DNA from: Protoeuglena noctilucae | Lineage: Eukaryota | Direction: 5' to 3' | NCBI GenBank assembly: GCA_958009085.1 | Contig: OY253670.1 | Location: 1,612,001 to 1,676,000 of the forward strand | DNA: 64,000 bases | Shown here: positions 6,609 through 57,300 of the stretch, one piece after another | How positions within the stretch are numbered: position 1 is the first letter of the stretch | How the letters are laid out: each line of letters begins with the position of its first letter | Program-made: the position numbers and the translations under genes | The notes under the pieces: model-generated | The model's database searches: none | Told to the model about the DNA's origin: nothing | What the model saw: only the letters and a program-made list of their open reading frames with translations

Positions 6609-6822
6609 TTATAAACAACGTGTTCATTTGCTGCGCAGGGTATGGTAACAGCGCTTTCCGGTGACAACCTATAGGTCAGCCTTATCTCGCTCGGCTCCTT
6701 CCTCAAGCCCTCATCTCTGCGGCCGCGTCTGCACGGCCGCGATGTTCAATGTATGTCCTGCATGCATTTATGCGCCGACCCCAGCGCCTTCCCGGCCATG
6801 CGCTCATTGAAGTCGGCAGCCG

Positions 6823-8171
6823 TCACAGCCGCTCCCACGGGAAGTCTCTCGGCATTAGGCCGCGGCACCGCTCGTGCAGGAGGCCCACCAGAAACGCTAG
6901 CGCGTCCACCAGTCGCGGGCCGGGACGGTTGAACATCTGGTGCCCGTCCACCAGCACCACGCGCCCCGCCCGCACGGCACGCAGGTCGGCCCACCACGGC
7001 TCCCGCGCCAGCGGACCCAACTCTCTCCTGCACGCGAAGGGCAGAGATAATGACTGTTGCAAACATAACTGTCCGGCTCTCCTTGCGTCCGACTCTACGA
7101 CGTCCCCCACCCCTCGCCTGGCCGTGGCAAGGTCGAGCCCGCAAGGGCACACGACCACCCAGTCCGGGTCCGCCTCTCGCAGCGCTGCGTGCTCCACGGC
7201 GAAGGACGGCCCCGCGCCCCCTCCCTCCCGCGCCTCGTTCAGGGGGTGGGAGCCCCCCGCCATGCGAATCAGCTGCGGCGTCCAGTGGCCCCCCACGAAC
7301 AGCGGAGCCGTCCACTCCAGGAACGCCACGCGGGGACGCTCAGGGGGCGCCTGAGAGAGCGAGACGCGGCGAGGCTGGTCGTGTGCCTGCGTCACCATGA
7401 AAAGCGTACGCGTGCTCCCCCGCCGCGCACCTGCTCCGCGGCTGCCGCCACCGGCCGCGCCACGCGCCCCCGCAGCCCCTCTACCGCCCTGCGCGCCTCC
7501 TCCTCCCGCCCCAGCGCCGTCCCCACGCGCATGGCGTCCTTGAAGACGTCGTCGAGGCTCTGCATGCGTGGGATGCCGGTCGCAGGTAGCAACCGTGACA
7601 TGACTTGAGATTCGCAAGCATCCCTGGCAGCGCTCCACTCGCCTGGGGGTTGAGGTCGATGACGGCGGGGTGCGGGTCCATTTCACGCGCCGCCCGGGCG
7701 ACGAGCGCGTAGTCGACGGCGCACACCGCACAGAGGCTCTGGGTGAGGATGACGTGGGGCCGCAACGCACGCAGCGTCTCGATGTCCAGGTGGTAGAGGC
7801 CCCCGCCCTCTTGCAGCATCTCCCGCACTTTGGCGTCCATCTGCTCGCTGGACTCGAACGCGTGCTTCTGCCTGCGTGCGCGGGTGCAGCGGCGCATAGG
7901 ATCCTCGGTGGGCAAACGTAGCGCGACTTGACGGCGCCGGGGAGCAATCAAAAGACCACTCGTACCCAGTCAGGGCGGGGAGAGACGTGACGGACGCAGG
8001 GAAATCGCACTCGTGGCTCCGGCCGACGAGGTTGCGCTCGGCCCCTACTAGGCACGCGATCTCTGTCGCGCTCGGGATCAGAGAAACGACGCGCAGCTCC
8101 TCCGGCGACACGCCCGCCGGGATGACCGCTGGGGCCGGACGCGCCCCCGCAGGAGCCACGGTGCACGCCAT
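6823..8171 (-). CDS. BtuF/FepB-like (cobalamin/iron-siderophore) substrate-binding-protein homologue, multi-exon
   Basis: RVVSLIPSATEIACLVGAERNLVGRSHECDFP; LRPHVILTQSLCAVCAV; FLEWTAPLFVGGHW; VDGHQMFNRPGPRLVDAL. Confidence 0.85.
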
Positions 8172-8480
8172 CTCCGACTGCCTATGGATTTTCCTAGAGA
8201 GGCAAACGACGGCGGCGTCGACGACGGCCGCAATTGTTTTCCCGCAAAGCGGAGAAAGCGTTGATAAAGACTGGCGGTGCTTTTCGCCAGTCTTGGCTGC
8301 TGAACCCAAGCGCCCAAGCTTGCCCAGCTTGGTTTCGTAGACAATTACGACACGCTCAGCCTTGGTTGCTCTCCGCTTTCCTCGGAGGCAGCCAAAAATC
8401 TTGCTGCTGTGGTAAGGCGTGTTCTGGACCCCGGTGCGAACTCGACCCTGCTTAGCGCCCCTCCCGACTGCGTCTGTTGC

Positions 8481-10470
8481 ATGTTGAGTCGATTAGGAGC
8501 TAGGGCAAGCGTCCTCACGCCGGCAGTCGGCAGATACAGCGCAGCGGCGATGGCAAGCCCCGGCGCGACATTCCCAGCGGGAGAATCGCCTGCTCCGGCG
8601 TCGTCTTGGTCGAGCTTATGGAGGAGCGTGCGGTGGATTCGGGTGCGGCGGCCGGGCCACCACCGCAGCGCAGGCTTAGGGCGCGCCGCGGCTCCCACGA
8701 CCGACCGCGGACAGCCTGCGCCGCCGCAGACGTCCCTCCGCGAGGCGCGGGAGGCCGAGCACGCGCTGCTGCGCTACGCGGGGTTACGCGAGGCGGAGGT
8801 CCGGGACGTCCCCTGCGGCCCCTCCCCCAAGCACACGATGCACACTGTGTCGTGCGGCAGCCCCGACGCCCCTCCCATGGTGCTCCTGCACGGCTACGCT
8901 GCGGGCATCGGGTTCTACTTCAAGAACCTCGCCCCGCTGTCCCACCACTTCCGCCTCCACGCCGTGGACTGGCTGGGATGGGGGCTGTCCGGTCGCCCGC
9001 CCTTTAACGCCAGGCGAGGGGCGTGGCCGGGGATGGGGGTTCATCAACCGTGGCATTGGCAACTACCGCTGCCCCGCTGCCGACTCGCAGGACTCGCACT
9101 GCTTGCGCCTGCCCGTTGCTCGCTCTGCTGTCAGGTCAAGCACCGCTGCTCTCTCGCTGCTCACCCTCACCCCGCGCTCCTCCCCCCAGGTCCACCGCGG
9201 AGGCGGAGGACTTCTTCCTCCACGCCCTCGAGCGGTGGCGCCAGGAGATGGGCATCGAGCGCTTCATCCTCGTGGGCCACTCCCTGGGGGGGTACCTCTC
9301 CGCCGTCTACGCCTTACGCCACCCCGAGCGCGTCGAGAAGCTCCTGCTCCTGGGGCCCGCGGGGGTGCCTGCGAAGCCAGCCGATTTCTCCCCCGAGGCG
9401 TTCCGCAAGCGCGCCAACGTGCAGCCCTACACCCTCAGGTGGGGCGTGGCAGCCAGGGGAGGGGCAGAGAGGGGCAGAGAGGAACGCGTGCGGCGGCGAG
9501 GTGACTGTTGGTGTTCAATCAATCTGCAGGTCGCTGATGGTGTCGGTGTTCCCGCGCCTGTGGAACGCGGGCGTGACGCCCGGCGCGGTGGTGCGGCTGC
9601 TGGGCCCCGTGGGGCGGTCTCTCACGGAGGGGTACACCAGCCGGAGATTCGTGGAGGGGCACGGGTTTACGGGTGACCCAGGATGGGTGGGTGGATGGGT
9701 GTCAGTCATGGAGGGGCGAGCACTTGCACACTGTCGCCCTGCCGCCGTGCCTGATGCATAACTATGGAGGGTGCTTTATCACACCGCAGAGGCCGAGAAG
9801 GTGGCCTTCTCCCACTACATGTACCACATCACGGCCAGCCCCGGGTCGGGCGAGTACGCCCTCCGCCACCTTCTCGAGCCCTTCGCCTGGGCCAAGGAGC
9901 CGATTGGGCCACGCGTCAGCCAGCTCAAGGCAAGCGCGTCACGCCTGCGCGCTAGCCAAGCAGCCATGATTCCACGTCGCGACTCTGCGTGATCGCCACT
10001 CAGCCCTCGCACATCTCTCTCCTGTCCATCCATCAGGTTCCGACATCCTTCTTCTACGGTGACTCGGACTGGATGAGGCCCGAGTGTGGGACGCAGGCGG
10101 TCGAGGCGGCCAGGGCCGTGCGCAAGCCCCTCTCCCCCACCGACCTCACCGTCCAGGCGAGGGGGCAGGGATCCTCGGTGCGGAACAGAGCGTCGTTGCG
10201 CCCCACTCGCACCCGCGCACCATCCCGGTCCTTTCTCCGTCTCCACAGATAATCCCCAAGGCCGGCCACTTTGTGTTTCTGGACCAGCCCGCCCAGTTCC
10301 ACGAGGCAGTCCTTCGCGCCTGCCGCCCCCACATGGTCGGGCGCAAGCCGGGGCAGGCGTGGGCCGCGTGCTTCTCGAAGCAGGGGCAGGATGGGGTGGG
10401 CCCGAGGCCGTCAGCGTCGACGTGGCAGCATGACGCGGCAGGTCGAGGCACCACCCTTCGCAGTTGTTGA
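8481..10470 (+). CDS. ABHD4/ABHD5 (CGI-58/Cld1-like) alpha/beta hydrolase or acyltransferase, multi-exon, possible organellar presequence
   Basis: [38 protein letters not shown] (GxSxG); [18 protein letters not shown] (HxxxxD). Confidence 0.88.
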
Positions 10471-10587
10471 CATAGCGAGCACAGCGTCGGTTGTGCGCAG
10501 GCACTCCCGGACACCCTAACCTCTCTACCCTGTCACGGTTGCAGTGTCTAATGAAAAAGCACTCTTTCAACAGATACAGAGGCGCGT

Positions 10588-13500
10588 TCACAGGATGTGC
10601 GCGGGCGGCAGCTGCAGCTCCTCGTTGACCTTGGAGGAGAGGTACTGCCCCAGCAGCGCCCTCAGCTCCTTGTTCTGCCCCTGCAGCGCCTGCACCTCCT
10701 GCAGGTCCCCCGCCCGCGTCTTGAGCAGGCGGTGGTAGCGCTGTAGGGCCTTCTCAAGCGCCTGCCACACGCGCACCCCGCGCTCGCTCACCACGCCGCC
10801 CATGGCCGCCCAGTACTCGCGCTCCTTCTCGCGCATGCGCTTCGTCATCACCTGCGGGCGATGGCAGAGCACGGGCAGGGGTGGGCATGCACAGAACACA
10901 GAGGGGCCGTGCCATGGCATGGCACGTGCATCAGCTGGCCCCTCGCCTGCACGCGGCTCGCCCCCGTGGGCTTGGCCTTGATGTTGCGCGCGTCGTTGCC
11001 GTGCTTCTCCACGAACGTCTTGAGCGCAGCCACTGCGGAGAACGACACGGCCACCCCATGCGCACTCGCGTCCCGCACCGGCCATGCGCGTCGCTCTGGC
11101 CCAGCCGTCACAAGACACCCGACCGAGCCTCGCGAGCGCCAAGCACATGCTCTCCTAATGCTCCATGCGTTCCACTCACCCGCCTCGTTCGGATGCACCA
11201 GCTCCAAGCCCCCATCGTCCGCCTCGACCCTCGACTGGGACGACGTGGGGGACGACGCGCGGGAGTTGCTGGACTGGGCGTGGCGCACCGACGACGCGTT
11301 GCGCGGGACCGACTTGGCGCCGCGCACGCCGCCACCCGGCACGCGCGCCGTCAGGGCCTGGGGGGAGGGGGAGGAGACGAAGTAAGACTCTTGCACTTCT
11401 GCAATTCGATCCTACACTAGCACTTGCCCTTAACCAGCCTTCCCTAATTTGCCTCTCACCTGCACCAGCCTGTCGAACAGCTCCCCGTTGGTGACCCCCA
11501 GGGCGTCGAGGATGTGCCGGACGGTGCGCCGCGACCGCTCCTCGCCCCCCAGCCTCTCCAGTTCCCCCCGCACCCGCGCGTCCACCAGGAACACCGCCTC
11601 CGCCTCCAGCAGCGCCAGCAGCCCCGCGTGCGCCGGGTCCGCCACCTTCTCCGCCAGCTGTCGCGCCGCCTCCCGGTCCTCCTCCTCCGCCGCCCCCTGC
11701 TCCCCCTGCCCGGACTCGATCTCCTCCGCCGCCACCTCCCAGGGGGTGCGGAAGATGTGGTCCCCGGGGGGGCGCCAGCTCAGCCCCAGCTGCTGCTCGT
11801 GGATCACCTTGTCCGCCTCCAGCACCCGACGCACCAGCTCCGCCACCAGCTGGTCGTTGTGCACCCGCACCTCCTGCGGGGGAGCGAAAGCGACTCAGTT
11901 CATGAATGAAGCACCGCCACTCGCGCACCCTCCCTCACCGCTTGGTCTGAGTCGACCCCTGCTGCCGTCACCTGGTACACCTTGAGGTCTGCCTCCTCAA
12001 AGTGCTTGAACTTGTGCTGCAGCTCCTTGAACAGTTCCGTGATGCGCTTGTACTCCTCCGTCAGCTGCCGGTTCTCCTCCTGGTACTTGCGGTCCAGCTC
12101 CGCGTACCTGGGGCGACACGGGGAGAGGCGAGGGAGGAGATGCGTATGGGTGGTGTTGGTGTGATGGTGGAGGCAGTGGGTACTATATCAGATACGCGGC
12201 ACCAAAACCTCGGTCACTGCTACTTGTGTTGCGACAGCGACAGCGCATGCCCATGCCACCCCCAACCCTCCCTCACCTCTGCTTGTGCTGGGAGAGTATG
12301 TCGATCTGCCGGTGCTTGCGCCTCTTGTGGCTCTCCCGCGTGCTCCGGTTCTCGTGCTCCCGGTCCCCCAGGACCTTCCGGTTGTACTCGAGCTTCTCCT
12401 GGTTCAGCTGGAACGTGGCCGCCATGGCCTGCATGTGCCGCTCCAGGTTCAGCTGGTCCTGCGTCAGCCGGACCTTGAGCTGGTTGTGGTCCTCGCTCGT
12501 CTTGACGCGCGTCGCCTCCAGCTCCTTGTCGTACTCCCGGATCTTCGCCTCCATCTCCCTTTGGAACTTGTCCTCCCGCTCCCGGCGGTGCTCCAGCAGC
12601 GCCTTGATCTCCCCCAGGTTGCGCTCCATCAGCTCCGACTGCTCCGCCATGTACGCCTTGTCCACCTCCGCGCCCTCGGACTCGTACAGCTGCGCCATCA
12701 CCTCGAACTGCCTGGGAGTAGGGGGAGGGGAGGGGGCAGTTGGCCGGAAAGGGGCACGCGCTGCGGAGTCGAGGGCAAGGGGTTAGCAGGCATGATGCTT
12801 GTGGCTGCCACGTGACAGTAGATAGGTAGATAGTTAACAAAGATAGATAATGCACGAACAGGAAAACCTTCCCCCGCTCGCCTGGCCATGGCTTCAATCA
12901 TGGCGTCAATGTCCATGGCGTGCTGCTTCAGCAGGAGCGTGTACCCGTCGTCCTTCTGCTTCACCTCCTGCTTCATCTCCTGCATGGGAGGGGCACGCAC
13001 GCAGCGCAGGTGACGGGGCGTGCATGCAGGTTATGGGGCGTGCACGCAGGTGAGACTGAACATGCACAGGCACCCCGCTCGCCTTGATGAGGGTGTCCTT
13101 GCTCTCCAGGATGTGCGCACATGCCTCCTGCTGCGCCTGGATGGCTACCCACAGGTCCTGGGGCACCTCGATGTTGAAGAGGTCGCTCCAGTGTGCCGCC
13201 ACGTCCGCGTTCGCCTGGGGTGGGGGTGGGGCGAGAAGGGAGTGTGCAGAGGTGACCCAGCAAAGCATGAGACACATGGTCATTCGTGGCACTGCTGCTG
13301 CCAGGGGGACCCATGGCGCGCTCGCATTTGCCTCGCATCCGCTCCCACACACAACGCCCTTCCCGTCTCCCCCCTACCTGCTGGCCTCGTCCAGCATGCA
13401 CCACCCACCCTCATCTCTCTCCTCTCTCCTCATCTTCTAGTCAAACAACTCCGCCTCTCACCTTGGCGCTGGCCTCTGCCTCGTCCAGCATCTTGGCCCG

Positions 13501-14228
13501 CAGGTCCTGCCGGCGGTGCTCCTCCACCTCCCGGCGCGCCCGCTCCCGCTGCATGCATTGCACTTTAAAGCCCTCCACTTCAGCGTCCGTCTCGGACCGC
13601 TTGGCCGCCGTCGTCCGCAGCGCCGCAATCACGCGCGTCTTGGCCAGGCCCAGCTCCCGCTCCTGAGGGCGAGGGGGTGGAAAGGCATCGTCATCGCGAT
13701 TGTCGCGTACAAACACTTGCTGCATATTCGCCCTCCTTCCATCGCCGCCGCTCAGCGCCTCGCGTGGCCCGTCCGCACCTTGGGACCCCCGATGGCGTCC
13801 TGGCCCTCCTCCTTCCGCCGCATCGTCTCCCGCTTCTCGACCACCCGCTTCTTGCGCTCATCGATGCGCTTTGACCTGGCGGGGACGGAGCCGGGAGGCT
13901 GCTCAGGAGCGCGCAAAGGTCGCCGTTGCGCATGCTGGGACGCAAGCCGCGTCGAGGAGGAAAGCTCGCTGAGTCCGCGCGGCTTCCCAAGCATTTTATT
14001 CCAGCAATGCTCATTTGCCGACCCACAGACGGGGCCGAGACCGTGGCTCAGCGCGTCCTCAGCAGTCAACATGTCAGCCAACGGCACACCCCCGCGCAAG
14101 TGGAGCGTCGACGGCATAACGTGCGTGCAGCGTTTCGCCGTCGACGCCCATGAAATCCTGCGCGTGAGCGGCAGCCGCCCTCACCTCGACTGGCCCCCGG
14201 CGGTGTCCAGCTCCACGACCTGCTGCAT
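10588..14228 (-). CDS. DRC1: Dynein regulatory complex subunit 1 (CCDC164), multi-exon
   Basis: WSDLFNIEVPQDL..IQAQQEAC..ILESKD; KQKDDGY..LLKQ...DID; QLNQEKLEYN.KVL; C-terminal ALQRYH.LL.R...QNKELRALLGQYLSSKVNEELQLPP. Confidence 0.9.
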
Positions 14229-15177: not shown

Positions 15178-18100
15178 ATGGCTCCCGAAGATGTGCCTCA
15201 ACTGCAGGACGACCCCGGGTTCGCGGAGGAGGCCGAGAGCCCCGATTCGGGGTACTATGAGGTCGCGGCGTACTGCATCGAGAGCCAGGAGAGTCCGCGC
15301 GAGGCCTTACGCTGCCGCCTGGCGGGATCGAGCTTGCGAGGGGCAGCGCAGTCCCTGCCCCGCGCCGATGGACCTCCCGGCGCCTCCCCGCAGATCACCG
15401 CGCTGGCCTTCGATGCTATGGAGGACGTCCTGTGGGCCGGCACGGAGGACGGCGGCGTCGCGACGCTCACCTGCCCGTCCCTGCACCCCTACGCGCACTG
15501 GAACGCCCACGGGGAGCCCATCTGCGGTGAGAAGAGCGAAGGCATTTGCGAAGCTATATAAGATGCGTCTCTGCTCGCTCTCTCGCTTGCCGCGTCTCCA
15601 TGCAATCCGCCCGCATCTCTCGCTCCTGCCCCGCAGCCCTAGTCCCCTTCGGCCCCGTGTGCCTTTCCGTGTCGGCGTCGTCCGCACGCCTGCAGGACAT
15701 GGGTGGCCCTGCGCTGTTCAAGGTCAACGCCCGCGCCGCGGACCCCAACTGCGCCTTCACCGCCGCGTCTGCGGACGTCGTGTCTGGGACGCTGCTGCTG
15801 GGCACGGCGGGGGGGGAGCTGACGAGGGTGTCGGGGAGGGACGGGGACATCCTCGCAGAGGCACAGGCGAGTGGTGTGATGAAGACGCGGCTGAGTGATA
15901 GGTGACGCGTCGCCTGCAGTCGGGTGCGTGGCTCATCGCTTGGTAATTCTGCTTCGCTCCTCCCCTCGCTCCCAGGTCAGCCGCTCTGACGGGGATGGCA
16001 TCTCTGCCCTGGCGGTGGTGCCCGGGGGACTGACCCTGGCCGTGGGGATGACGTCGGGGTCAGGCGAGGGCACGCAGCGTGGGACGGTGCAATGCATCTG
16101 CACAGCCACACGAGCAGGGTGTGGTTGCTCATGCACCGCAGCAGTGGTTACAATGTCGCATTCACACTCACCGCACCCTCTCCACCCCCAGTGCTCTTCT
16201 ACGACCTGCGCATGTCGCTGTCGGCCGCCCCCGCCGCCTCCGCCTTTGCCCACCAGGGCCCCGTCCGGTCCATCGCATGCAACCCCAAGGGAGACCTCAT
16301 CGCCACCACCGGTGAGCACGCCGTCATGCTTGTCACACCTTACCGACAGGCTCTGTATGCTCTCTCAGACTCGCCCCCCACAGACCAACCACAACCTTCG
16401 CTCCATCCAGGTTACTTCGGCCACCCCCCCCACCGCCTCCCCGACCGGCGCGTGTGCCTCTTGGATGCGAGACGGGGGTACACCGAGGCAGCGCCGGCCA
16501 TGCACCCCATGGGGGCGTCGTGGGCGGCATTTGTGCCCCTGCGCACCGCCACGGGTGAGCAGCGATGGGGAGCACATGTATGCGAGGGATGACTGCCGCA
16601 TGACAATCGTCTCTGTCTGCGAGAAATGGCTATCGAATGACAACTGTCTTTGTGCATGGTGACCATCGACACGTTGCTAACCCACCCTTCCCTGACACCC
16701 CTCCCCTGCCCCCATCCCCCCCCAGCGTCCCTGTGCTCCGATGCCGGCCAGTTCCTCTCCATCGACATCCTCTCCGGCAGTCTCCTCTCCCACTTCCAAG
16801 TCGACACCGCCGGGGCTGCCATCCTCACCGCCGCGCTCGTGAGGCAATGCCACCGCACGCACCCTCACTGCCTTAAAACCGTGATTGTCGCAGCCCTGGC
16901 TTTCCAATCGTGTTGTTACAGCAATCGTGTCTCATCCACTCTCCCCCCCAGTCCCCCTCGGGCGACTGCTACGCCTTTGGTGACGAGGCGGGCGTGGTGC
17001 GGCTGTGGAGTCAGTCCGAGGAACCACGCGTGCAGCTGTACGGGTGAGAAGACGACATGCACCCTGTCATCACGGCACTCAGCAACAGCACTGCGCAATG
17101 CATGTGTGTTGCTCGCACGCATTGCCACACCCCACATGACTGCAACACCACCGCCCTCTCTCACCACACCCCCGCACCTCCCTCTATCCCTCCCCCAGTG
17201 CCCGCCCCGTGTCTCCCCCCCACCCCTTCGCCTTCCATGGCCCCCACCTGAGTGAGGCGTCCCCCTTCTCTGTCGCGCCCCCCCTCGACCCCCAGCCTTA
17301 CCTCGCAGCCCTGCACCAGGAGGGCGCACCCCTGCCGCCCTTCGCACTCCTCTCCGACGACAGGCGAGGAAAGCAGACACAAACACACGCCACCACATAC
17401 CCATTCGCATCGACACGTGTGATTGTGATACCATCTCACTCGCCCACCCTGCTCCTGTGTGTTCCTCACTCACTCCCTCTCCCGCACTCAGTCTCAATGC
17501 CCCCATCCCCGTCGGCCTCCCCCCCCGCACCGTCCACGACGACCTCGTCCCCCACCTCCGCGACGCACCCACCCTGGCACCCGGGGTGGCAGTGGCTGAC
17601 AACCCCGCGTACTCGAGGGGGGTGCCCAAGGCGAGAGAACAGCGATTGCTTGCGACTAGTACTACGCTTGGCGCGGTGTGCATGCACGCGCCACCTCTTA
17701 ACTGCGCCAGCTCACCAATGCAGAGATGGTTCATCCACATTGAGGTAACTCACCTCCTCTCTTTTTATTACTCAGGGCACCCCCACGGCCGAGTCGGCTG
17801 CCCTGCGGTCTTCCCGTGCCCAGGCGCGCCACCGCCGGCGGAAGAAGGGGGCAGGGGACGACCCCGACGCAGCGCAGATGCGGGAGGCGATGCTGGGGGA
17901 GCTGCTGCCACAGGTGAGAGACGGTGTCACAGTCTCCATCCCTGTCGCTCCACCGCCCGGCTACCTCTCGCCCCTCTCTCACCAGCTCTCACACCCACTC
18001 TCTCCCATCCTCACTGTCACGCTCGACTTCCACCCCCATCTCACACCCCCCACTCCCACCGCTCCCCCCCCAGCGCCTGTGTCACGTGGAGGTGCGCCTC

Positions 18101-43460: not shown

Positions 43461-44521
43461 TCACTCCACGTCGGAGTCCTCCAGGTCCGCCCGCATCTGC
43501 TCCATCGCGCCCTCGTCCACCTCCACCCTAGTCTTCCCACCCGCACCCGCAACCCCGACTGCTTCTCCCCCGCCCCAGCCACTCGCGTGCGCGCCCCCTC
43601 CTCCCGACGGCGCCAGTCGCGCCCTCACGGCCATGATCTCCTCAGGCGCGCTGTCCTGACTCAGCCCCTCCTGTGCCAGCGAGCCCCGCAGCAATTCCAC
43701 CGCGAAGGACCCCTGTTCGTCCGCGTTCGCATCCGACACCATCGACAGCACCTCCGGCCCCACCTCAATGCAGGCAAGCCTGCAGGTGAGACGACAGATG
43801 GCGGCCCACTCAGCAGCCGTGCAAACCGCACTCCTGACCATCAGCGGCACCTGCCATCTGTGCCAGGCAACATCCGTGCAAGGGCGCAGCCAGCCCTCTT
43901 CACCTGCATATCTGCAGCAACCGCCGGGCCAGGTGCACCTCGATGGGACGCCCCAGCACTGCCTTGGCCGCGCTGGTCCCCTTCTTGGCACCCGCCCGCG
44001 CCCTCTGCGGTGCAACGCGGTGCGACGTGGCGTCAAGGTTGCCAGTCACGTCCCATGCCAGACCACAGCTTGGCCGCACAGTGCCATGCCAACGCTCGCC
44101 TTGGGTGCTGGCTGCTTCCCATCCTCATCTTCCTGCCCGCCCGCACTGCCGGCCGCGACTCCCGGAGACTGCTCGGCGAAGATCATGTCGACGGTCGCAC
44201 CCGCCACGTGCTGCATTGGCACAAGCAAAGAGGGCCTCGTTGCTGGCCTCGTGACGGGCCCTAGCGAAGGCTCTACGGCCCCTGCCCGCGCACCATGTAA
44301 TTCTTCAGGGCTTTCTCCTGCAGGCCCAGCTCTTGCTCCAGCATGCGGAGCAGCCTTTTGACCGTGAGCGCCTCCTCATTCGCGAGGATGTACTGCAGAG
44401 GGAGACCCAACGCGTTCTCCGCTGGCAGTCGCTGGCAGACAAGACCGACACTCGCGGTGCTGTGTCTCACCTCCTTTCGCGCGAGAATCGCGTCCCGCAC
44501 GGACTCCACCGACACCGCCAT
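43461..44521 (-). CDS. Putative DEK-C / HIRIP3-like chromatin protein
   Basis: N-terminal helical VRDAILARKEYILANEEALTVKRLLRMLEQELGLQEKALK; acidic C-terminus. Family assignment by resemblance only. Confidence 0.5.
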
Positions 44522-44869: not shown

Positions 44870-46912
44870 TCACTCGATGTTATAGCGCTCCAGCACGGAG
44901 GCCACCGTCTCGCGCTGCGCGGCCAGGTGCCCGAGCACGTCCGTGGCGAACTCGACGAACTCGTGCCAGTCGATCTCCCCGTTCTCGTCCGCGTCCACCG
45001 TCTGCACGATGGCCTGGATCTGCAGCGGCGTGAGCCCCAGCTCGGTCGTGCCCAGCGCGTGCAGCATGTCCACCGCCTCCACGTACGATAGCACGCCCCG
45101 CCCGTCCGTGTCCGCGTTCTCAAAGATCTGCGGGGACACGCGGGGCTGGCGTCACATCACGCTAGGGCAAAAGAAGCGATCCCTCGTATGCCCGGGACCT
45201 CCCAGGTCTCACCTGCGCCAGGAGCCCCGCGGCCTCCTGCGGGTCCACGTCGGCGAACTCCTGCATGGCGTGGCTCTCGGCGGCCGCGGCGACCGTCATG
45301 GCGCGGTCAGTCTGGCTGCGCATGCCCATGCTGCGCTGGATGACCTCGGCGGCGGCGGGGACCAGCCGCGCGTAGGCGATGGTGCCCGTGTCGGCGTTGG
45401 GGGTCGCCTGGGGAAGGGCCATGATGGTGGCCAGCTGGAGGCGGGAGAGGCCCAGCCACTGGTAGGACATGTCCATCAGGGCCGCGCGCACTTCCTTGGC
45501 CGGCAGGTGGCCGCTGTCCTCGGGGTCCAGGCGGGAGAAGCCCTCTAGGAGGCCACGCTGCAGGGCGTCCTGCGACACACGACACGGGGGGCAGGTGCTG
45601 CAAGGGGGATGGGTGCACGTCCAGGAGCCAGCGGTGTGGTGGGAATGGCGAGTGCAGAGTGCCGAGTGCCGCCAGCTGTGCCCCCGGGCTGGGCTCCCCG
45701 GCTGTACTAAAGCACTGTCCCTCGCACCTCGGACGACCACGCCGCCTCATGCACGAGGTCCTGCGCCAGTCGCTCGGTGAGCACGGCCAGTGCGACGGGC
45801 ACGAACTCCGCGTACTCGATGGCGCCGTCCTGGTTGACGTCGGCTGCCGACATGATGAGGTTGATGTCCTTGCGCGTGAGGCCCAGGTCGGCGTTCACCA
45901 GCGCGTTGCTGCGGGCGGGGCACGGCGGGACGCCTCGCGAGAGGGCAGAGGCTGCAACATGTGTTGCCACATCTGCCGTGTGCATTATTACCACGCATCA
46001 CCCCCACGCCCCGCTCACCGGAACTCGGTGCGCGACAGCCAGTTGCTGCCGTCGCGGTCGGCCTTGAGGAAGATGGCCCGCAGACGCGCGTCCAGCTGCT
46101 CCTTGGACATGCCCTTCACCAGGATGGCCTCCGCCTGCCGCAGCGCCTCCGCCTCCCTCTGCAGCCGAGCGGGGGGGCAGGGCAGCGTGAGTTGACTGCA
46201 GCAGCGAGCACGCCACGCCTCATCTCCCGCACAGGCTCCCGCACCTGCTTGCTGGCCTCGGCCACCTCCCCTGAGACCTGCATCGACTGCAGCAGCTCAA
46301 TGGCCAGGGGCATGAACTCCCCGTACTCAATCACGCCGTCCTCGTTCTCGTCCACCTCGGCCATGATGGTGTTGATCTCGCGGCTCGTGAGGCCCAGGCG
46401 AGCCGACGCCAGGCACTTCTTGAACTCCTGACGGTCCAGGAAGCCGCTCTGGTCCTCATCGAACTCCTGCAAGGTGGGCGGGCAGGGCAGGGCAGCGTCA
46501 GCGACCACCCACCACCGCAGTTAGCAGGTCCCATCTCGTCCCCCGTCTTGCCTTGAATATCTGCAGCACAATGTCCTCCAGCTCCTGCTGCGACATGTCG
46601 GAGATCTTGTGGTGCTGGCTCGACGCCACGGCGCCCATGGTCCCCGCCGACTCGCGCAGCAGCTCCGCAAAGTACTGCGATCCGAACTCGTAGATGTTGT
46701 CCGGCTGCGGGCGGCAGGGCGGGGAGGACAGGGTTCCAGGGTCGCGCCCAGCCGCGGCGGCACGGCATGGCACAGCGGAGGGCGAGGCACGAGGCCCGCA
46801 GCTCCCTCCGATGGGTCCTCGCCTGCTGCCTCAGGATCTCTCTGGAGAAGTTTTTTAGCAGCGCGGGGAACCCCGGCGGGATGCTAAAGATCTTTTGGTA
46901 GCGTGACGACAT
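44870..46912 (-). CDS. RSP7: RIIa (D/D) domain plus multiple EF-hand protein, radial spoke protein 7-like
   Basis: IPPGFPALLKNFSREILRQQPDNIYEFGSQYF; EF hands DEDQSGFLDRQE, DENEDGVIEYGE, DRDGSNWLSRTE, DVNQDGAIEYAE, DADENGEIDWHE. Confidence 0.78.
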
Positions 46913-47978: not shown

Positions 47979-50206
47979 ATGGCGATGCATGTCTGCGTCC
48001 CGCGCATCGCCCGTGCGGCGCCTGGGGCGAATGACGCGGCGCCTTTTCAGGTCCGCCGTGCAGCTGTGCAGCCCATCTGGCGTCCCGCGGATCGCCAACC
48101 GCTGGGACGAGGGAAGAGGGCGCGCGGACCCCCGCACGGTCCGTGCCGCGCCGCGTGGCTCGCCGACGTCGCGGCCGCGTCCAAGAAGCTGCCTTCGCCG
48201 CCGATGGAGGCGATGAAAGATATCGCGTCTGTTGGGATGAGCTTTTCCGCCGAGGCCACGCGCGCGACGGTGCTTGCGGCCTCGGGGATGGTGGCCACGT
48301 ACGTCGCCGCGTGGGCCGCGCTGCGGTGGCTGGAGGGCGTGAACGAGCGGGTGCAGGCGGCCGCACGGGACAGGTCGATCGTCGATGGGACGGTGAGGCT
48401 CCCCCGATGCGCCGGAGGCCGTCCAGGCCTGGCGGCAAGAGCGAGGGTGCAGATATACCCACATGAATGTGCCCCCGTCGCAGGAACTCTTCGGCGTGCT
48501 CTTCTCTCGCGAGGTTCTCTTATCCACGACCGTCACGGCGATCAAGCGCCCCCTCGAGATCCTGCTGCCCCTGGGATCGGCCGTGCAGGCCCTGCGCATC
48601 CTCTACGCCTACATCGACTGGCAGGTCCACACGGCCAAAGTGCAGCTGCCCAGGTCAGATGCGAAGAGTGCTGTGACCGGCCGATGCCGTGCGTGTTGTT
48701 CCGCCCCAGCATGCCCACCGTCATACCCCCCCAACTGTGTCCCCCCCTGCAGCAGCCTCGAGAGCGCCGCGCATGCCGTGCTGCACGCCCTGGGCGCCCT
48801 GGACTCCGCCGCCTCGCGTGTCATGCACGTGGCCCTGGTGGCCCTGGCCGGCTGGGCCATGCTGCGCTTCAAGGATCGGCTGATGCAGTTCGCGGTGGAC
48901 GACGACGACAAGCGCGTCGACAAGCAGCGAATGGTGCTCAGGGCGCTGCTGCCCATCTCGGGGTGAGACTGGCGAGGTTGAGCTGGGACGGAGCAGCCGC
49001 GGGCCCCACGCCAACTGAGCCGGGCTGCTAGGCCCTCCTTGCATGCCGCTCTCAGCCAACTCTCCCCTTCCCCTCTCCCCCAGCCTCATCACCTGGGTGC
49101 TCATCGGCGGCGTCGCCCTCACCATCCTGCGCCAGTTCGGCATCGACATCCAGCCCCTCCTCACCGTCGGGGGGTTCTCCGGCGTCGTACTCGGCTTCGC
49201 GGCACAGGTGAGGACGTGCCTCATCCATGGCAATCACATGACACGCATGCCATCTGCAGCTGTCCGAACACACAACACATCCCCCCCTCCACCCCCCGCC
49301 CTTCTCCCCACCCAGGGCCCCCTCACCAACCTCCTCTCCGGTCTCCAGCTCTACCTCTCCCGCCCCTTCGTCGTCGGGGACCGCGTGGAGCTCAAGACCC
49401 CCGGGGGCGGCACCCTCATCACGGGGTTCGTGGAGAGCATCGAGGCGAGGAGGGCCACGACTGCCACGTGTCATGCATGACGCGACGCTAATGGTCGCAC
49501 CTAGTCATCATCGGCACTAGATGAGTGACACGAGCGGTGTAGTGGTCATGGTTGCGGACGGCGAGTGATACCTACACCCCCCCCGCAGCCCCTGCGCACG
49601 TGCATCACCTCCGACACCTATTACCCCGTCTCCATCCCCAACAAGATCGTCACCGACACCCTCGTCACCGTCCTCTCCAAGCCTGCCGCCAGCACCTTTG
49701 CCAACACCCGCATCGGCCGCCAGGTCACCGCCACCCTCAACGTGCGATACCACGACATGGACAAGATGCCCGGGATCGTGGCGGAGCTCAACACGTGGCT
49801 TAAGAACCACCCGGGCGTCGACCGCAACAAGCCCTACTACGCCGTGTGGAGCGACATGAGCCACTACAACCTGGCCATATCCGTCCTCTGCCACACCAAC
49901 CGGCTGTGGTCGCTGCAGGCGTCCCGACTCAAGCAGGAGCTCTTCCTGGAAGCCAACCGACTCATCCGCAAGGCCGGGTGAGGGATTGCGAGGGGCAGCG
50001 GCAGGCGGCAAGGACGGCGTGGTCGACATGCGAGCACCGACATGCGAGCATCCACACATGCATTTCGGCACCGCATCCGCAGGGCCGACTTCGCCGTGCC
50101 GACGCACATGGTGGAGGTCGTGGAGCGGGGCAACGGCGGCCACGCCAACGGCGTGTCGGACGCCGTCAAGGCCGCCGGGGCGGGTCCGGGCCTCGGGGGC
50201 CGATGA
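47979..50206 (+). CDS. MscS-like mechanosensitive channel, probable organellar transit peptide
   Basis: FGIDIQPLLTVGGFSGVVLGFAAQGPLTNLLSGLQLYLSRPFVVGDRV; VSIPNK. Confidence 0.9.
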
Positions 50207-50576: not shown

Positions 50577-53500
50577 ATGGTGGAAATCGTCGAGCTGACC
50601 GGCCCGGACGCCGGGAGCGTCACTAAGCATGGCGCCGCAGTCGAGCGAGAGATCCAGGAGGAGATCGCGCGGCTGAAAGCCGAGGTCAAGGCGCAGCGAG
50701 ACCGGGCACTGGCCCGGGAGCAAGAGGACTTCTACGCCGACCCGGAGAACCGTCGAGGCATCCGGATCACGGAGAAGGATGTCCCGGTGTACGCCAAGGT
50801 CGTGCACACGACCCTGCAGTATCGGTCAGCCGCGGGGAGGCGCGCGGCTGCCTTGTTGACGCTCCTCCGGCCTGCCACTCTCGCCCCGCGCGATGCCTGT
50901 TCCCCCGCGACCGCCCCCCAGGAACGGCGATTCTTATTCCGGGGAGGTCCTCGCGGGGATATACAGGCACGGGAAGGGCACGCACGTCTGCGCCAAAGGG
51001 GACAAGTACGAAGGCTCGTGGCACTACGACCGTCGGCATGGGCGCGGCAGGTGGGAGGCGGAGTCGAGCAGCGGTGTGCGATGTGGCATCGCTGGAGTGA
51101 CTGCGACGCAGCTGCGTCCTTGCCGCATGCGAGCGCGCCCCATGCCACAGCACCTGCCACAGTGTCCAGACACGCACTCACCTGGTTATGCGCTCATGCC
51201 TGCGAAGCTGATGCCTCCACCCATCGCAGGATGGAGTTTGCGCGTGGCCTGATCTACGACGGCGACTGGGCGGATGACCAGGCTCAGGGGCACGCCATGT
51301 GTCAGTACGAGAACGGCACCGTCTACAAGGTGAGAGCGAGAGATCCGTGAAGGGGTGAGATCGAGGCAGGCTCGCAGGGCAGGGACAGCAGACGAGTGGT
51401 ACTTTGCCATGGTGATGCTGGCATGACACCGGGCGATGTGCGTTAAATGCATGGCACATGGCCACATGGCCACCACATGCTGGCCTTGCACGGGTAGCCA
51501 TCGCTTTGCGGCTGCAGGGGGAGTTCGCCAGCGACGTCCGCTGCGGTTGGGGCCGTGCCACGATGCCCGACGGGTCGTGGTACGAGGGGGAGTGGGACCG
51601 GGACCGCATGCACGGGCAGGGCGCCTTAACTCACGCGGATGGGTCTTACTTCGAGGGGACCTTCCGAGAGGTGAGGGGATGTAGCAAACAAACATATGTG
51701 AAGTTTTGATGTGGTGATGCGTGGTCAGCATGGCAATTGAAAGATGATGCGTGTGCATGCACCGCACTCGTCTGTCGGTGTTGCCAAGGGTCTCATCTGC
51801 CCCCCTGCAGGGCCAGCGTGTCCAGGGTCGCTTCGTGCATGCCGGGCAGGGCGCAGAGTACGTGGGCGAGTTCGCCCAGGGAGACCGTGAGGGCCATGGT
51901 GCCATGACGGTGGAGGGGCAGTGGCGATACGTGGGGGAGTGGCGGGGAGGGCTCAGGCACGGGAGGGGCACGTGCATGTACGCGGATGGGGCCACGTATG
52001 AGGGCATGTGGGCGGAGGACGTGCGGTGCGGGGAGGGGGTGCTGGTGGAGCCGAGGGGGCTCAAGTGAGCGGGCGTGCGTGGTGGAACAGTGCGGGCATG
52101 CTGACTGCGTAGAGGCATGTGTGAGTGTGGGGTTGGGACTGGCAGCTATGCTAATATGACCCTTTCTTCCTGTTGCAGGTACGAGGGGACGTTCGCAGAC
52201 GACGTGCCCCACGGGCAGGGGTGCATGGTGCTGCCGACGGGGGACAAGTACCGGGGGCAGGTGCAGAGGTGAGGAGTGCACGGTGATGGGGGCACATGCA
52301 GAGGTGAGGGGTCGTGTGGGCAGTCACTGTCAGTGGCCACTCCACTCCCACTCGTCATCCCCGTCAGCTCTCTGCTTTCGCAGGGGCCTCCCCCACGGCC
52401 GAGGGCAGGGGGTGGGTGCGGACGGGGAGGCTTACGACGGCGAGTGGGTGGGGGGACAGCGAGAGGGGCGTGGCACGTGCCGGTACGCCAGCGGCGATGT
52501 CTACGAGGGCGAGTGGGCCGGGGGCAAGCGTCATGGGCGGGGCGTGTGTCGCTTTGCGGACGGCGTGACCTTCCGGGGTCTCTGGGAGGGCGACCTGTGG
52601 GTGCAGGCGGGGGCGGATGCGGAGCGGAGTGAGGCGGAGGGGGCGGGGCTGGGAAGGGCGGTGGCGGGGGAGACGGCTGCGTTCCGAGTGCAGGTGCGGA
52701 GAGGCTGGACTAAGCACGGCTGCATGGCTTAGATCACTTTCTCTTTAGACATCCGTGACAGGATGTGCATGGCACAATCACCCGGTGCCTGTCCTGCGCC
52801 GCCCCAGGCCAGGGACCCCGAGGGCAACCCCCGACTGACGGGGGGCGATGCGGTGGAGGCGACGCTGCTGGGCCCCGGGGGTGTCAGGGAGTCAGTGACC
52901 GTGGCGGACAGTGGGGACGGGAGCTACGCGTGCACGTACCTGGTGCGGCGTGCGGGGTCGTGGCAGCTGCGCGTGGAGGTGTCGGGGGAGGAGATGGCCG
53001 GGTCGCCATTCACGGTCCGCGTTGCACCGGGTGCCCCGTGCGTCAAGGCAAGGGGTGGGGGTAGCTGTGGGCGAGCTGTCTGTTTGCAGCGCACTCGTAA
53101 TCATGCTTCCAACCAGCCATCACCCACGCCTGTGTCGCAGAAGAGCGTGCTGGTGGGGGAGGGCCGCCGGTCCGCGCACGTGGGCGTCCCCACCCGGGTC
53201 TTCCTGGAGATGCGGGATGGGTTTGGCAACGCATGTGGACCCGATCATTTCTGTGACTTGGCTGCGGTCTCGGCGGAGCTGGTGTCCCACGCCGACCTCG
53301 TCACAGCCGGTGAGGAAGGGAGGGGTGCGACTTGCAAGATGCCAGTCGATGAGCCACCAGTTGCATGGCTGCAACTCACCTCTCATTAATCGGTATCCAC
53401 TAACATCCACCCACCTTTTCCGCACTCAGAGGCGGCCCTGGAGTCTGAGGGCCGCGTCTCTCTGACCTACGCCCTCCCCTGCCCCGGCATGTACCGCCTG

Positions 53501-54099: not shown

Positions 54100-54326
54100 G
54101 TGTAACTGCCAGGGCAGCGAGCGCGTCGCTTTCAACAACAGCGGGGCGTCGATGGGGACGCCAGTCGCATGAGCCATGCCGGATGAGTGGCGCTAGGGCA
54201 CTACGAGGGCGGCGATGCTTGGCATGCCTATTGAACAACAGCTGCCTCCTTCCCACCTCTGCCGCCACACCCACGGCCTCTCCTCAATTCACACCTTGGC
54301 AACCACGCCCATGGCCTCTCCTCTCC

Positions 54327-57300
54327 TCACACCTTGGCCGTCTTGGGCCTCACGGGCGTCCCCTTGGGCCCCGCGCCCGGCCCCTTGGAGCTGGGTCGCT
54401 TGGCGGGGGAGGGCGCGGCAGCGATGGCCGCCTTGGAGCTCGTGGGGCGGCCCACGGTGGTGCTGTTCACCTGGGGACAGCCGCGAAGGGGTAGTGGGTC
54501 TCGCAAATGCACACTAAGCACACTAAGCACACAGCCCACGCCTCCCCATCTGCTGGAAGCACACAAGCCCACGCACACACACACCGCCCCAGCCACCGCC
54601 CCCCCCCTCGCCTTGGCCGCGAACTCCATGGAGCACTTGGTCTCCTGGGCCGACCGCACGGCCGGGCTGACGTTGACGAACATGAGCGTCTTGGCCTCCC
54701 CCTCCAGCGCTGGCTTGAGGAGCCAGGTGAGCTTGGAGGAGCGGTAGTTGACGTGGGCGCGCCCGTTCTGCGCCCGCGCCACCATCTGCTGGAAGCACGT
54801 CTTGACCGCCGACAGGGAGGCGTTAATGGACACGGCCTCGCCCCGGCGCTCCCCCTCGGCCAGCGAGTCCTTGAGGCGCTCGCTGCCCGCCAGGTCCACC
54901 ATGTTGAGGCTGCTCTTGAACCGCACGCCCAGCTCGTCGTTGCGGCCCTCGATCCACAGCACGAACACGCTGTGCGACCGCGACGACCGCTCGTTCATGG
55001 CCGTGGCCGCCACGCTCCGCTGCGCCATGGCCCGCTCCACCAGCGCCTGCACTTCCCCCTCCGACGCCACCTCCACCACCGCGCAGTTGGTCAGCGTGGT
55101 GTCCTTGTCGAACTCGTCGTGCTGCACCTCGATGCGCTCCCCCTTGCGGCCGTGCGGGTCCCCCAGCAGGTCCCGGTACTCCTCCATGTAGATCTCCAGC
55201 ATGGAGACACGCATGCGGTACTCCCAGCCCTGCAGGCGCAGGGACTCGCTCTGCCGGAACACCTGGGCCATGGCCCTGGGGGATGGGGGGGGAGGGCAGC
55301 GAGTCAGCTATGCATATCTCTATCCAGTCTCCCTGTCATGACTGCCTCCCTGATAGCTACTTTTCATGTCTCGTCCCATCTCATCCCCTCTATCCCGCAT
55401 CCCTCCACGACCCCCCCAGGTCCCACCTGGGGATGGTGCCCGGGTCCTCCGGCGTCCCCATCATGGTGTGCGTCTTGCCAGACCCCGTCTGCCCGTACGC
55501 GAACACGCACACGCGGTACCCGTCCAGCGCTGACTGCACCAGCTGAGACATCTCCTCGAACACCGCCTCCTGGGACGCCCCGGGGCGGAAGACGCGGTCG
55601 AAGCAGAACTCGTGGCGCTGCTCGCGGTCGTTCCTGATGACAAGGGGGTGGGGGGAGGGCGGTCGCGCTCAGTGCCACGACTTGCGTGCCCCTGCTTCAC
55701 GGCAGCAACCCTCTCTCACTACACATGCCTCAACGACGCTCATCCCCCTCATCCCCCACCTGGTATACTTGAGCTCCAGCGCCGTGTCCCTCCTCTCCAT
55801 GTCCTCGTAGTAATCCACCGCGCACTCCTCCGAGTCCCCCGCGCCGTCCCCCGCCCCCTCGGCGTGCAGGGGGCGCACGCGGCAGAAGACGCGGATGTTG
55901 CCGCGCAGGTCCTGGATGACGTTGTGCAGGCGGCGGCGGTGCGTCTCGGCCTCCTGGAGACTGCGGGGGGCAGGCGCGCAGGGACACGGGGTGAGGGCCG
56001 TGGCAGGTCACGCAGTCCGGCAGGCAAGGGGCGCCAGGGGACCCCTCACCTCTTGCGCAGGGTGTGGGTCTGCTGCTCCAGGTCCCTGCACCTCGACTGC
56101 AGCGTCGCCGTCCCCTCCTCGCTGCGCACCGCCGCCTCCCGGCTCATCCGCGACTGCGCCGTCAGCACCTCCACCTCCCGGCGCAGGCTGGCGATCAGCT
56201 GTGCCTGGTCGCCGGACGTGCTCTGCAGCTCCTGGCGCTTCCGACGCAGCTCCGCCAGCTCCTCCTCCAGCGACCGGTACATGCCTGCGGGTGGGGCAAA
56301 GCAGCGCTACTGGGTTGGGTGGGCGGCACTGAATAGAGGCCAGCGTGGCGCTTTCTCCAAAGATCTCCCTCCCTCACCTTGCCACCGCTGCAGCTCCTCC
56401 GTGGCCGCCGCCAGCTCCCCCGCCAGCCTCTCCCGCTCCGTGGTCGCCTCGTGCAGCTCCCGCATCTGCGTCTGCGCCTCCCCACGTGCGCGCTGAAGGG
56501 AGGCCTCCAGGGACGCGGCGCGCTCCTGGGCCTCGGCGGCGGCCGCGGACAGAGCCTCGCGGTCGCGGCGGGCAGTCTCACGGACCACCTGCGGGGGTGG
56601 CGGGGCAAGGCATGGAGCGGGTCTGTGTCTCGCCCTTCCCTCGACGCTCCCGGGGTTGCCCCCGCCGCTTCTCACCTCCCTCTCCGCCCGCGCCTCATCC
56701 GCCGCCCGCTGCGCCGCCCCCAGCTCCTCCCTCAGCCGCCGCGCCTCATCCCCCGCGCGCTCGGCTGCCGCCCGCGCTTCGGCCGCCGCGCCGCGCAGGT
56801 CCGCCGCCTGGCACTGCGACTGGTGGAGCTGCTCCTCCAGGGATGCGCGCTGGGACTGCGGGGGGCGCCGAACGGTGTGTCGCTTCACACACACCTGCGC
56901 ATCTGCGCACACCTGCGCACCCATCCCAGCCTGTTAGGCATCTTCCCAACCCGCGCTCGTCCCTCACCGCGTGGGCCTCCCTCGCCGCCCCCAGCCGCTC
57001 CTCCGCCGCCTCCGCCCGCTGCCGCAGGGACCCCAGGTCGCCCTCGGCCGCGGCGCGCCTCTTCTCCGCCTCCTCCGCCCGCACCCGCATCGCCGCGGCC
57101 TCCTCTCCCGCCACCGCCGCCCGCGACCGCGCCTCGGCCGCCTCCTCCACCGCCGCCGCCGCCCTCGCCCTCGCCCCCGCCTCCTGCTCCTCCACCCGGC
57201 GCGCGTGCTCCTGCACGCTGCGGGCCAGCTCCTGCGCCCGGTCCGCCACGCCGCGCGCCTGCCGCGCCTCCTCCCTCTCTGCGGCCGCCTCCTCCCGGGC

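Follow-up and report, generated by a model that had tools for sequence, protein, structure and literature searches.

How can a large minority of the introns in a nuclear genome begin with GC in place of GT and still be spliced? The question is raised by a stretch of 64,000 nucleotides filed under Protoeuglena noctilucae (contig OY253670.1 of the assembly GCA_958009085.1, positions 1,612,001 to 1,676,000), in the following called the window, in which a sequence-only reading had listed 28 introns with the donor AG/GCRAG (the slash marks the exon–intron boundary; all positions are those of the window). On the evidence presented below, these are very probably ordinary introns of the major spliceosome (U2-type) that carry a GC donor, account for about 30% of the introns in the window, and reside in the nuclear genome of a marine green alga of 66% G+C that groups tentatively with pedinophytes. 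The phenomenon as such and the grammar of the donor are already known; new are the lineage and the clean conditional rule under which C is found at position +2.

Splicing at GC Donors

The window has a base composition of 66% G+C and a single run of N (27439–27638). AG/GCRAG stands at all 28 listed positions on the strand given for each, with 24 GCGAG and 4 GCAAG donors. Both donor-like heptamers are enriched in the window: AGGCRAG occurs 58 times on the two strands against about 24 occurrences expected under a first-order Markov model, and AGGTRAG 52 times against about 12. The listed donors make up 28 of the 58 AGGCRAG heptamers. By the gene models described below, the 58 divide into 31 predicted donors, 4 occurrences within sense exons, 3 within sense introns, 8 on the strand opposite a gene and 12 outside every gene model. 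At least three more full-consensus GC donors (28230, 37247 and 58040) are missing from the earlier list.

Splicing was followed in contigs assembled from four metatranscriptome runs. DNA runs contain 98–100% of the sampled words of 9000–18999, while the metatranscriptome runs contain 27–41%, as expected for exons only. DNA run X5, which contains 0.99 of the words of the stretch, comes from the same sample as RNA run X8; therefore, the GC alleles are present where spliced RNA is seen. Every register permitted by the ambiguity of a joint was tried before a donor dinucleotide was assigned. Among the 15 listed joints, 11 resolve to GT..AG (one of them on the minus strand) and 4 only to GC..AG; the latter, each found in three runs, coincide exactly with the claimed donors 9014, 9930, 10157 and 22595 (Table 1).

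Additional support comes from the ends and lengths of contig pieces. A 17-letter loose end at 17631 (run X11) matches the beginning of the exon at 17776 letter for letter, two contigs (runs X8 and X11) share a piece boundary at 7643, and in a 1147-nucleotide X8 contig the 363 letters between the listed pieces equal the exons 7431–7559 and 7118–7350 plus base 7027. This fit in length therefore supports the GC introns 7560–7642 and 7028–7117 together with a GT intron at 7351–7430, and a 14-letter loose end at 16313 supports the GT intron 16312–16410. In total, 20 introns are supported by RNA, 7 with GC and 13 with GT donors. On the contigs aligned to 5000–24999, 7 of the 28 claimed donors are supported at the GC itself and none is contradicted.

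Eight loose ends lie off predicted intron boundaries (9319, 11727, 12086, 12654, 13552, 13653, 19452 and 20009). The letters of those at 13653, 13552, 20009 and 19452 were sought in the window with up to two mismatches, yielding 0 matches each; off-boundary ends of this kind derive from other loci or organisms and are uninformative for this window.

Some further features of the RNA contigs concern transcript structure. A loose end of 25 T at 6730 shows where transcripts of g1, a minus-strand gene, are polyadenylated, and the intron 7872–7965, on the contig with this poly(A) end, lies upstream of the predicted start codon of g1 and is probably an intron of the 5' untranslated region. In run X12, two joints in the region 18896–22081 run backward, from 22081 to 18898 and to 18896, with 2–3 letters between, and depth rises to 996 in the bin 21675–22341; both joint ends lie inside predicted introns (18691–18933 and 21946–22118). 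Contigs of another abundant organism or low-complexity chimeras are suspected.

Colinearity with Orthologues

Relatives of the encoded proteins were retrieved with single exons as queries, and the spliced predictions were aligned with them; a junction was taken as colinear if the alignment was gap-free within 8 residues on each side. The PAN2 relative P0252 (1409 residues, 43% identity overall) is gap-free at all 8 GC junctions of PAN2, with identities per 16-residue window as given in Table 1. The same holds for the two kinesin-14 relatives at 54611. For the DRC2-like gene, seven homologues align end to end at 38–50% identity; all seven are gap-free at 13082 and 12881, and 4 of 7 at 10946. 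These alignments add ten claimed sites to those with RNA support (15867, 16064, 17364, 18218, 19107, 19762, 54611, 13082, 12881 and 10946), bringing the claims with support independent of any gene finder to 17 of 28.

The environmental kinesin relatives P0121 and P0122 (76% and 69% identity) as well as the PAN2 relatives P0245 and P0252 are recorded as single long proteins of 929–1409 residues on contigs of 3.7–66 kb. If these contigs are genomic and no intron models were used in calling their genes, the introns of the window would be absent from the related lineages. A scan of metagenomes for close relatives with the kinesin exon returned 25 loci with a best identity of 40%, and thus no close relative.

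Gene Models and the Share of GC Donors

Gene models were obtained with a Viterbi gene finder based on a three-periodic second-order Markov coding model that was trained on its own output. GT and GC donors were penalized equally and scored with one common donor matrix and one common acceptor matrix, seeded from the 15 RNA joints; a version without splice-site matrices placed boundaries poorly and was superseded. The finder yielded 19 gene models with 121 introns (82 GT and 39 GC), about 6 per model. It recovered 11 of the 15 RNA joints exactly and predicted an intron at each of the 28 claimed donors. One GT call of 1564 nucleotides was removed before counting, and so were five GC calls judged implausible, at 8651, 27405 (an intron extending into the N gap), 34485, 38982 and 50840. 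The curated set comprises 115 introns, 81 with GT and 34 with GC donors, corresponding to a GC share of 30% (95% confidence interval 21–39%); among the RNA-supported introns the share is 7 of 20. The earlier estimate of a large minority, put at roughly a fifth by eye, holds as to the large minority, while the figure itself is nearer 30%.

The excess of GC is not reproduced by other dinucleotides. In a decoy control, GC was exchanged for another dinucleotide with the matrices unchanged, and the alternative donors with full AG/..RAG flanks were counted. GT plus GC reached a Viterbi score of 3176 with 31 such donors, as compared to 2947 with 1 for GT plus GG, 2944 with 2 for GT plus GA, 2878 with 0 for GT plus CC, and 2902 with 1 for GT plus CT; with GT only, no alternative being allowed, the score was 2826. 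The low decoy counts do not stem from scarce candidate sites, since the window holds 46 AGGGRAG heptamers. The length of 21 of the 28 claimed introns is not divisible by three, and 2 of the remaining 7 contain in-frame stops. GT alternatives that keep the frame within 45 nucleotides all have donor-matrix scores of 0 or below, versus 2.7–7.0 at the GC sites, a comparison that is partly circular because the matrix is self-trained. The abundance of GC donors in the window is confirmed.

Sequence Requirements of the GC Donor

The GC donors are strict in their flanks, whereas the exon ends before GT vary, as the sequence-only reading had maintained. In the curated set, A at −2 is found in 32 of 34 GC and 45 of 81 GT donors (Fisher p = 2.6e-5), A at +4 in 34 of 34 and 69 of 81 (p = 0.017), G at +5 in 34 of 34 and 74 of 81 (p = 0.1), and the full AG/G.RAG flanks in 31 of 34 and 28 of 81 (p = 1e-8). 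GT donors conserve only the G at −1 and GAG at +3 to +5, with position −2 being variable; G occupies +3 in 109 of all 115 donors. The distinction persists when only RNA-supported introns are considered: A at −2 is present in 7 of 7 GC versus 4 of 13 GT introns (p = 0.005), and perfect flanks accompany 7 GC and 2 GT introns, imperfect flanks 0 GC and 11 GT introns (p = 0.0005).

Read in the other direction, the same counts give a conditional rule. Among the 59 donors with perfect flanks, +2 is C in 31 and T in 28 (53% C), while among the 56 donors with imperfect flanks it is C in 3 and T in 53 (5% C), those 3 being the least certain predictions. The background ratio C/(C+T) amounts to 0.61 in intron interiors and 0.59 at +6 to +25.

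Apart from the donor, GC and GT introns are alike in length (median 128 versus 129 nucleotides); they share the CAG acceptor (34 of 34 and 80 of 81) and a pyrimidine fraction of 0.80 and 0.79, respectively, at −20 to −4. They do differ in phase, with phase 0 in 26 of 34 GC and 36 of 81 GT introns (p = 0.002); the phase-0 GC introns follow the codons CAG (10), AAG (9) and GAG (6). This concentration is attributed to the need for A at −2, which would tie GC donors to just these codons because coding third positions are about 86% G+C.

The predicted introns of the window are strongly asymmetric: their 5' part is rich in G (GTGAGGGG or GCGAGGGG), and their 3' part is rich in C and T and ends in CCCCAG. 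No obvious branch signal was seen, the branch-like motif CTRAY occurring in the last 60 nucleotides of only 21 of the 121 introns. U12-type introns, whose donor motif is RTATCCTT or GCATCC, were considered and rejected, with ATCC at +3 to +6 in 0 of the 115 curated donors; Chlorophyta are reported to be without minor introns and minor small nuclear RNAs (snRNAs) (PMC11347168).

Placement of the Organism

The window encodes PAN2, HSP90, a DRC2-like protein, kinesin-14, a sphingolipid desaturase, MscS, a mitochondrial carrier and others, as named from the predicted proteins and precomputed Pfam labels. Judged from these predictions, the genes belong to a flagellate eukaryote. Green plants and algae provide the best named matches. 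Those of HSP90, at 78–82% identity, are Trebouxia, Parachlorella, Pedinophyceae sp. YPF-701, Micromonas bravo and Pterosperma, and a metatranscriptome protein matches at 97%. For the kinesin, Tetraselmis is the best named match (50%), as compared to the closer environmental relatives mentioned above.

An HSP90 phylogeny, suggested along with the list of donors as the way to place the organism, points to a green alga. In the maximum-likelihood tree (34 rows, LG+G4), the window protein groups with two metatranscriptome proteins (100/99), then with P0008 (98/85) and then with the pedinophyte YPF-701 (100/99), its nearest named relative; the tree represents one gene, and several prasinophyte classes are absent from its sampling. 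On these protein comparisons, the chlorophyte placement is firm and the pedinophyte link tentative. The latter fits the genome of YPF-701 (Akinorimonas japonica), which has 28 Mbp, 70% G+C and a codon bias stronger than that of any other green genome in the comparison (bioRxiv 10.1101/2021.10.04.463119). By the same protein evidence, the organism is neither a haptophyte nor a dinoflagellate, the groups that the sequence-only reading had named.

Comparison with Other Lineages

In model animals and plants, GC-AG introns account for 0.4–0.9% of introns in the SpliceRack survey (PMC1557818, Table 1), so that the share in the window is roughly 30–80 times higher. Apart from this difference in number, the introns described here resemble the U2-type GC-AG introns of animals and plants, which combine a donor whose remainder is nearer to the U1 consensus than that of GT introns with similar 3' splice sites and use of the major spliceosome (PMC1557818).

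The nearest parallel in frequency is the haptophyte Emiliania huxleyi, with 56% GC donors among 241 curated junctions and a ratio of about 60/40 overall in a genome of 65% G+C (PMC4028052). As in the window, a GC-rich nuclear genome is combined there with a very high share of GC donors and canonical AG acceptors; the authors ascribe the GC donors to genome G+C and note that GT-only gene finders mis-predict (PMC4028052). Unlike the share of about 30% found here, however, GC donors form a majority of 56–60% in Emiliania, which belongs to a different eukaryotic supergroup, and the conditional rule for perfect flanks is not described in the passages available from that account (PMC4028052). Among pelagophytes, the predicted GC-AG share is 14–17% in Aureococcus anophagefferens and about 14% in Pelagomonas calceolata, ascribed to high G+C, versus 0.32% in the low-GC relative Aureoumbra (bioRxiv 10.1101/2024.10.30.620910). 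These picoalgae are likewise GC-rich marine algae with a raised GC-AG share; they differ from the window in being stramenopiles, in their lower share, and in being intron-poor (0.1–0.9 introns per gene, against about 6 per gene model here).

Within green algae, the window stands apart from Chlamydomonas reinhardtii. This chlorophyte has a genome of comparable G+C and a GTGAG-like donor consensus. Its expressed sequence tags reveal 532 GC-AG versus 25,053 GT-AG introns, or about 2% (PMC2846911, Table 2), compared with about 30% here. High G+C in a green alga is therefore insufficient for a high GC-AG share. The words “splice” and “GC-AG” are absent from the main text of the YPF-701 preprint (bioRxiv 10.1101/2021.10.04.463119), and a literature search for abundant GC-AG introns in green algae, prasinophytes, pedinophytes and Tara genomes, covering few subscription journals and no supplements, returned no report. 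As far as this literature reaches, the lineage would be the first green-algal one with abundant GC donors and would join haptophytes and pelagophytes as a third, independent algal group of this kind.

This has a practical side, as a gene finder that accepts only GT would mis-model about three in ten introns and, with about 6 introns per gene model, most multi-exon genes, including those of relatives in environmental genome bins. In addition, the conditional pattern at +2 (53% C with perfect and 5% with imperfect flanks) would constitute an in vivo read-out of the number of U1 base pairs at which +2 becomes dispensable.

How the GC Donors May Be Tolerated

GC-AG introns are U2-type and bind U1, a closer match elsewhere in the site compensating for the mismatch at +2 (PMC1557818). 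The mechanism put forward in the sequence-only reading, namely compensation by the exonic AG and U1 pairing, is supported by the stricter flanks of the GC donors and agrees with this rule. Specifically, C at +2 would leave the 5' end of U1 snRNA with one base pair fewer and would be tolerated only where all neighbouring positions pair. Under G+C pressure, T at +2 would then change to C wherever the remaining pairing suffices, with C drifting to a near-neutral frequency. A change in an snRNA would not be required, and the nucleotide opposite +2 is likely unaltered, because GC donors have stricter flanks than GT donors.

Several points weigh against the interpretation as ordinary U2-type introns at a share of about 30%. 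All shares are those of one 64-kb stretch with about 19 gene models, as opposed to genome-wide values. The four metatranscriptome runs belong to one study with at most three samples and were available as assembled contigs rather than reads; they were aligned to 5000–24999 only, with 15 of 53 joints listed. Of the 15 RNA joints, the gene finder misses 4; it reports a GC donor at 8651, whereas RNA has GT at 8643, places a GT intron at 10396–10686 where RNA contigs read through, and divides PAN2 into two genes; it also added an antisense 5' part to the kinase gene. For eleven claims (30802, 31958, 33512, 34645, 35930, 38931, 44099, 46551, 46822, 49445 and 53048) the evidence consists of the ab initio model and frame arguments, and for all three imperfect-flank GC donors it consists of the gene finder. 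The strictness seen in the full set is partly circular because the donor matrix was trained on the finder's own output, a circularity from which the RNA-only subset is free. U1 pairing, mutation bias and near-neutrality are inferences; a search with Rfam at gathering thresholds returned no match in the 64-kb window, snRNA genes included. Finally, the low share in Chlamydomonas implies that G+C content is not the sole factor.

This last point is also what speaks for a changed spliceosome, in which a variant of U1 (or of U6 or U5-Prp8) would recognise C at +2 and thereby explain the high share: G+C content alone seems insufficient in view of the roughly 2% in Chlamydomonas (PMC2846911), and a variant U1 isoform has been proposed for the GA donors of Eurytemora and Oikopleura (PMC7072748). 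However, the stricter flanks of the GC donors are what an unaltered U1 would lead one to expect; a U1 that pairs with C at +2 would make GC the stronger class and compensation needless, and GT donors still form the majority and share the +3 to +5 consensus. We therefore regard such a change as unlikely. Somewhat less likely still is that GC donors are a deliberately weak functional class for regulated splicing or intron retention, kept by selection and not by drift. The authors of the Emiliania study tie non-canonical junctions to frequent intron retention (PMC4028052), and one X12 contig is unspliced across 9029–9464, which may, however, be due to DNA carry-over or pre-mRNA; contigs cannot measure retention. 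Against regulation stand the likeness of GC and GT introns in length, acceptor and pyrimidine tract, the distribution of GC donors across housekeeping genes of all kinds, and the share of C at +2 in perfect flanks, which is close to the background ratio, as under neutrality.

That the pattern is an artefact of mis-modelled genes or assembly errors, with transcripts really using nearby GT donors, is very improbable and, for the RNA-covered part, largely refuted. The assembly is metagenomic, with an N gap at 27439–27638 and a suspicious 100-nucleotide duplication in HSP90, and the gene finder does err; nevertheless, RNA contigs are spliced at the GC of seven sites, where no register yields GT, the DNA runs contain 98–100% of the words of the stretch, decoy dinucleotides do not reproduce the pattern, and none of the in-frame GT alternatives scores well. 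Introner families are known in Micromonas, and the GC-AG introns might be copies of a spreading introner with a GC donor; this is scarcely credible, since an all-against-all blastn comparison of the 121 predicted introns of the window returned short low-complexity matches and antisense self-overlaps only, and no families.

Beyond ordinary U2-type introns under G+C pressure, a wider proposition may be tentatively entertained, although we consider it rather doubtful. A pedinophyte-like green lineage would have arrived independently at a GC-AG share about 15 times as high as in Chlamydomonas, with G+C not being the sole cause; the 5' end of U1, the ACAGAG box of U6, U5-Prp8 or the population-genetic regime would have shifted such that +2 is effectively neutral when the five flanking positions pair. 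If true, such a lineage would provide a natural calibration of the pairing threshold for recognition by U1.

GC-AG Introns of the Window

The claimed, additional and doubtful GC-AG introns are compiled in Table 1. At donor 31958, the predicted junction product GAGSFSQ/V looks like the glycine loop of a kinase. The repeat-protein gene g9 (32844–36206, plus strand), in which three claimed GC donors lie, encodes about 8 tandem units of about 65 residues, of no family recognized by eye.

Table 1. Introns with GC donors in the window, with the evidence for each. Fractions over 16 are identical residues in the 16-residue window around the junction; fractions over 7 are homologues with gap-free alignment; “ab initio” denotes gene-finder prediction.
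Feature	Positions	Strand	Evidence
GC-AG intron, donor 7117 (cag/GCGAGG), g1 (periplasmic-binding-like protein)	7028..7117	-	predicted; X8 contig piece ends 7026, 363-nt fit
GC-AG intron, donor 7642 (cag/GCGAGT), g1	7560..7642	-	predicted; RNA piece boundary 7643 (X8, X11)
GC-AG intron, g2 (ABHD4/5-like hydrolase)	9014..9189	+	RNA joint X8, X9, X11; GC..AG only
GC-AG intron (aag/GCAAGC), g2	9930..10036	+	RNA joint, 3 runs
GC-AG intron, g2	10157..10248	+	RNA joint, 3 runs
GC-AG intron, donor 10946, g3 (DRC2/CCDC65-like)	10852..10946	-	predicted; gap-free 4/7, 11/16 with P0268
GC-AG intron, donor 12881, g3	12712..12881	-	predicted; gap-free 7/7; X8 piece 12275–12709 equals flanking exon length
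GC-AG intron, donor 13082, g3	12980..13082	-	predicted; gap-free 7/7
GC-AG intron, PAN2 (g4)	15867..15975	+	predicted; gap-free with P0252, 6/16
GC-AG intron, PAN2	16064..16191	+	predicted; gap-free with P0252, 8/16
GC-AG intron, PAN2	17364..17491	+	predicted; gap-free with P0252, 5/16
GC-AG intron (aag/GCGAGA), PAN2	17631..17775	+	X11 17-letter loose end equals exon start 17776; gap-free with P0252, 6/16
GC-AG intron, PAN2	18218..18458	+	predicted; gap-free with P0252, 10/16
GC-AG intron, PAN2	19107..19313	+	predicted; gap-free with P0252, 2/16; multiple of 3, no in-frame stop; weak
GC-AG intron, PAN2	19762..19940	+	predicted; gap-free with P0252, 13/16
GC-AG intron, PAN2 exonuclease part (g5)	22595..22839	+	RNA joint, 3 runs; gap-free with P0252, 14/16
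GC-AG intron, donor 30802, kinase gene g8	30624..30802	-	ab initio
GC-AG intron, donor 31958 (cag/GCAAGG), g8	31869..31958	-	ab initio; 2 in-frame stops if retained
GC-AG intron, repeat-protein gene g9	33512..33640	+	ab initio
GC-AG intron, g9	34645..34832	+	ab initio; frameshift and 3 stops if retained
GC-AG intron, g9	35930..36080	+	ab initio; frameshift and 2 stops if retained
GC-AG intron, donor 38931, HAD/methyltransferase gene g10	38792..38931	-	ab initio; no in-frame GT alternative within 45 nt
GC-AG intron, donor 44099, g12	44005..44099	-	ab initio
GC-AG intron, donor 46551 (aag/GCAAGA), EF-hand gene g14	46467..46551	-	ab initio
GC-AG intron, donor 46822, g14	46705..46822	-	ab initio; no in-frame GT alternative
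GC-AG intron, MscS-like gene g15	49445..49588	+	ab initio; 3 in-frame stops if retained
GC-AG intron (aag/GCAAGG), MORN/filamin gene g16	53048..53140	+	ab initio; multiple of 3, no stop; weak
GC-AG intron, donor 54611, kinesin-14 gene g17	54471..54611	-	predicted; gap-free, P0121 11/16, P0122 7/16
Extra candidate GC-AG intron (aag/GCGAGT), HSP90, unlisted earlier	28230..28366	+	predicted; DAVEK/VVVSD 16/16 with P0005, P0007
Extra candidate GC-AG intron (aag/GCGAGG), g10, unlisted earlier	37119..37247	-	ab initio
Extra candidate GC-AG intron (gag/GCGAGG), kinesin g17, unlisted earlier	57963..58040	-	predicted; gap-free with P0122 (7/16), not with P0121
Doubtful GC donor, imperfect exon end (cac/GCGAGG), g3	13663..13763	-	predicted; gap-free 2/7
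Doubtful GC donor, imperfect exon end (tcg/GCGAGT), g9	33999..34104	+	ab initio
Doubtful GC donor, imperfect exon end (ggt/GCGAGG), g14	45598..45725	-	ab initio

Further Observations on HSP90 and a Neighbouring Gene

In HSP90, the exon end and the donor are tandemly duplicated at 28087–28234 with a period of about 100 nucleotides. The first copy ends in AAG/GTGACT and the second in AAG/GCGAGTGACT, which is the same site with a 4-nucleotide insert, GCGA, that turns it into a GC donor. For the candidate at 28230, either the upstream GT copy or the GC copy could be the donor used. The duplicated segment occurs once in transcript-derived proteins; the duplication may be real, or else the metagenome assembly may have merged two alleles or strains. 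The 200-N gap at 27439–27638 also lies within HSP90 and removes its middle domain, and the gene finder spanned it with the false GC intron at 27405.

On the minus strand, a gene at 1623–5348 encodes a repetitive protein of about 1186 residues with abundant Thr, Ser and Ala and an N-terminal hydrophobic leader, probably a secreted or surface glycoprotein. The gene is nearly one exon of 3.5 kb, with a single GT intron after the first 8 coding bases.

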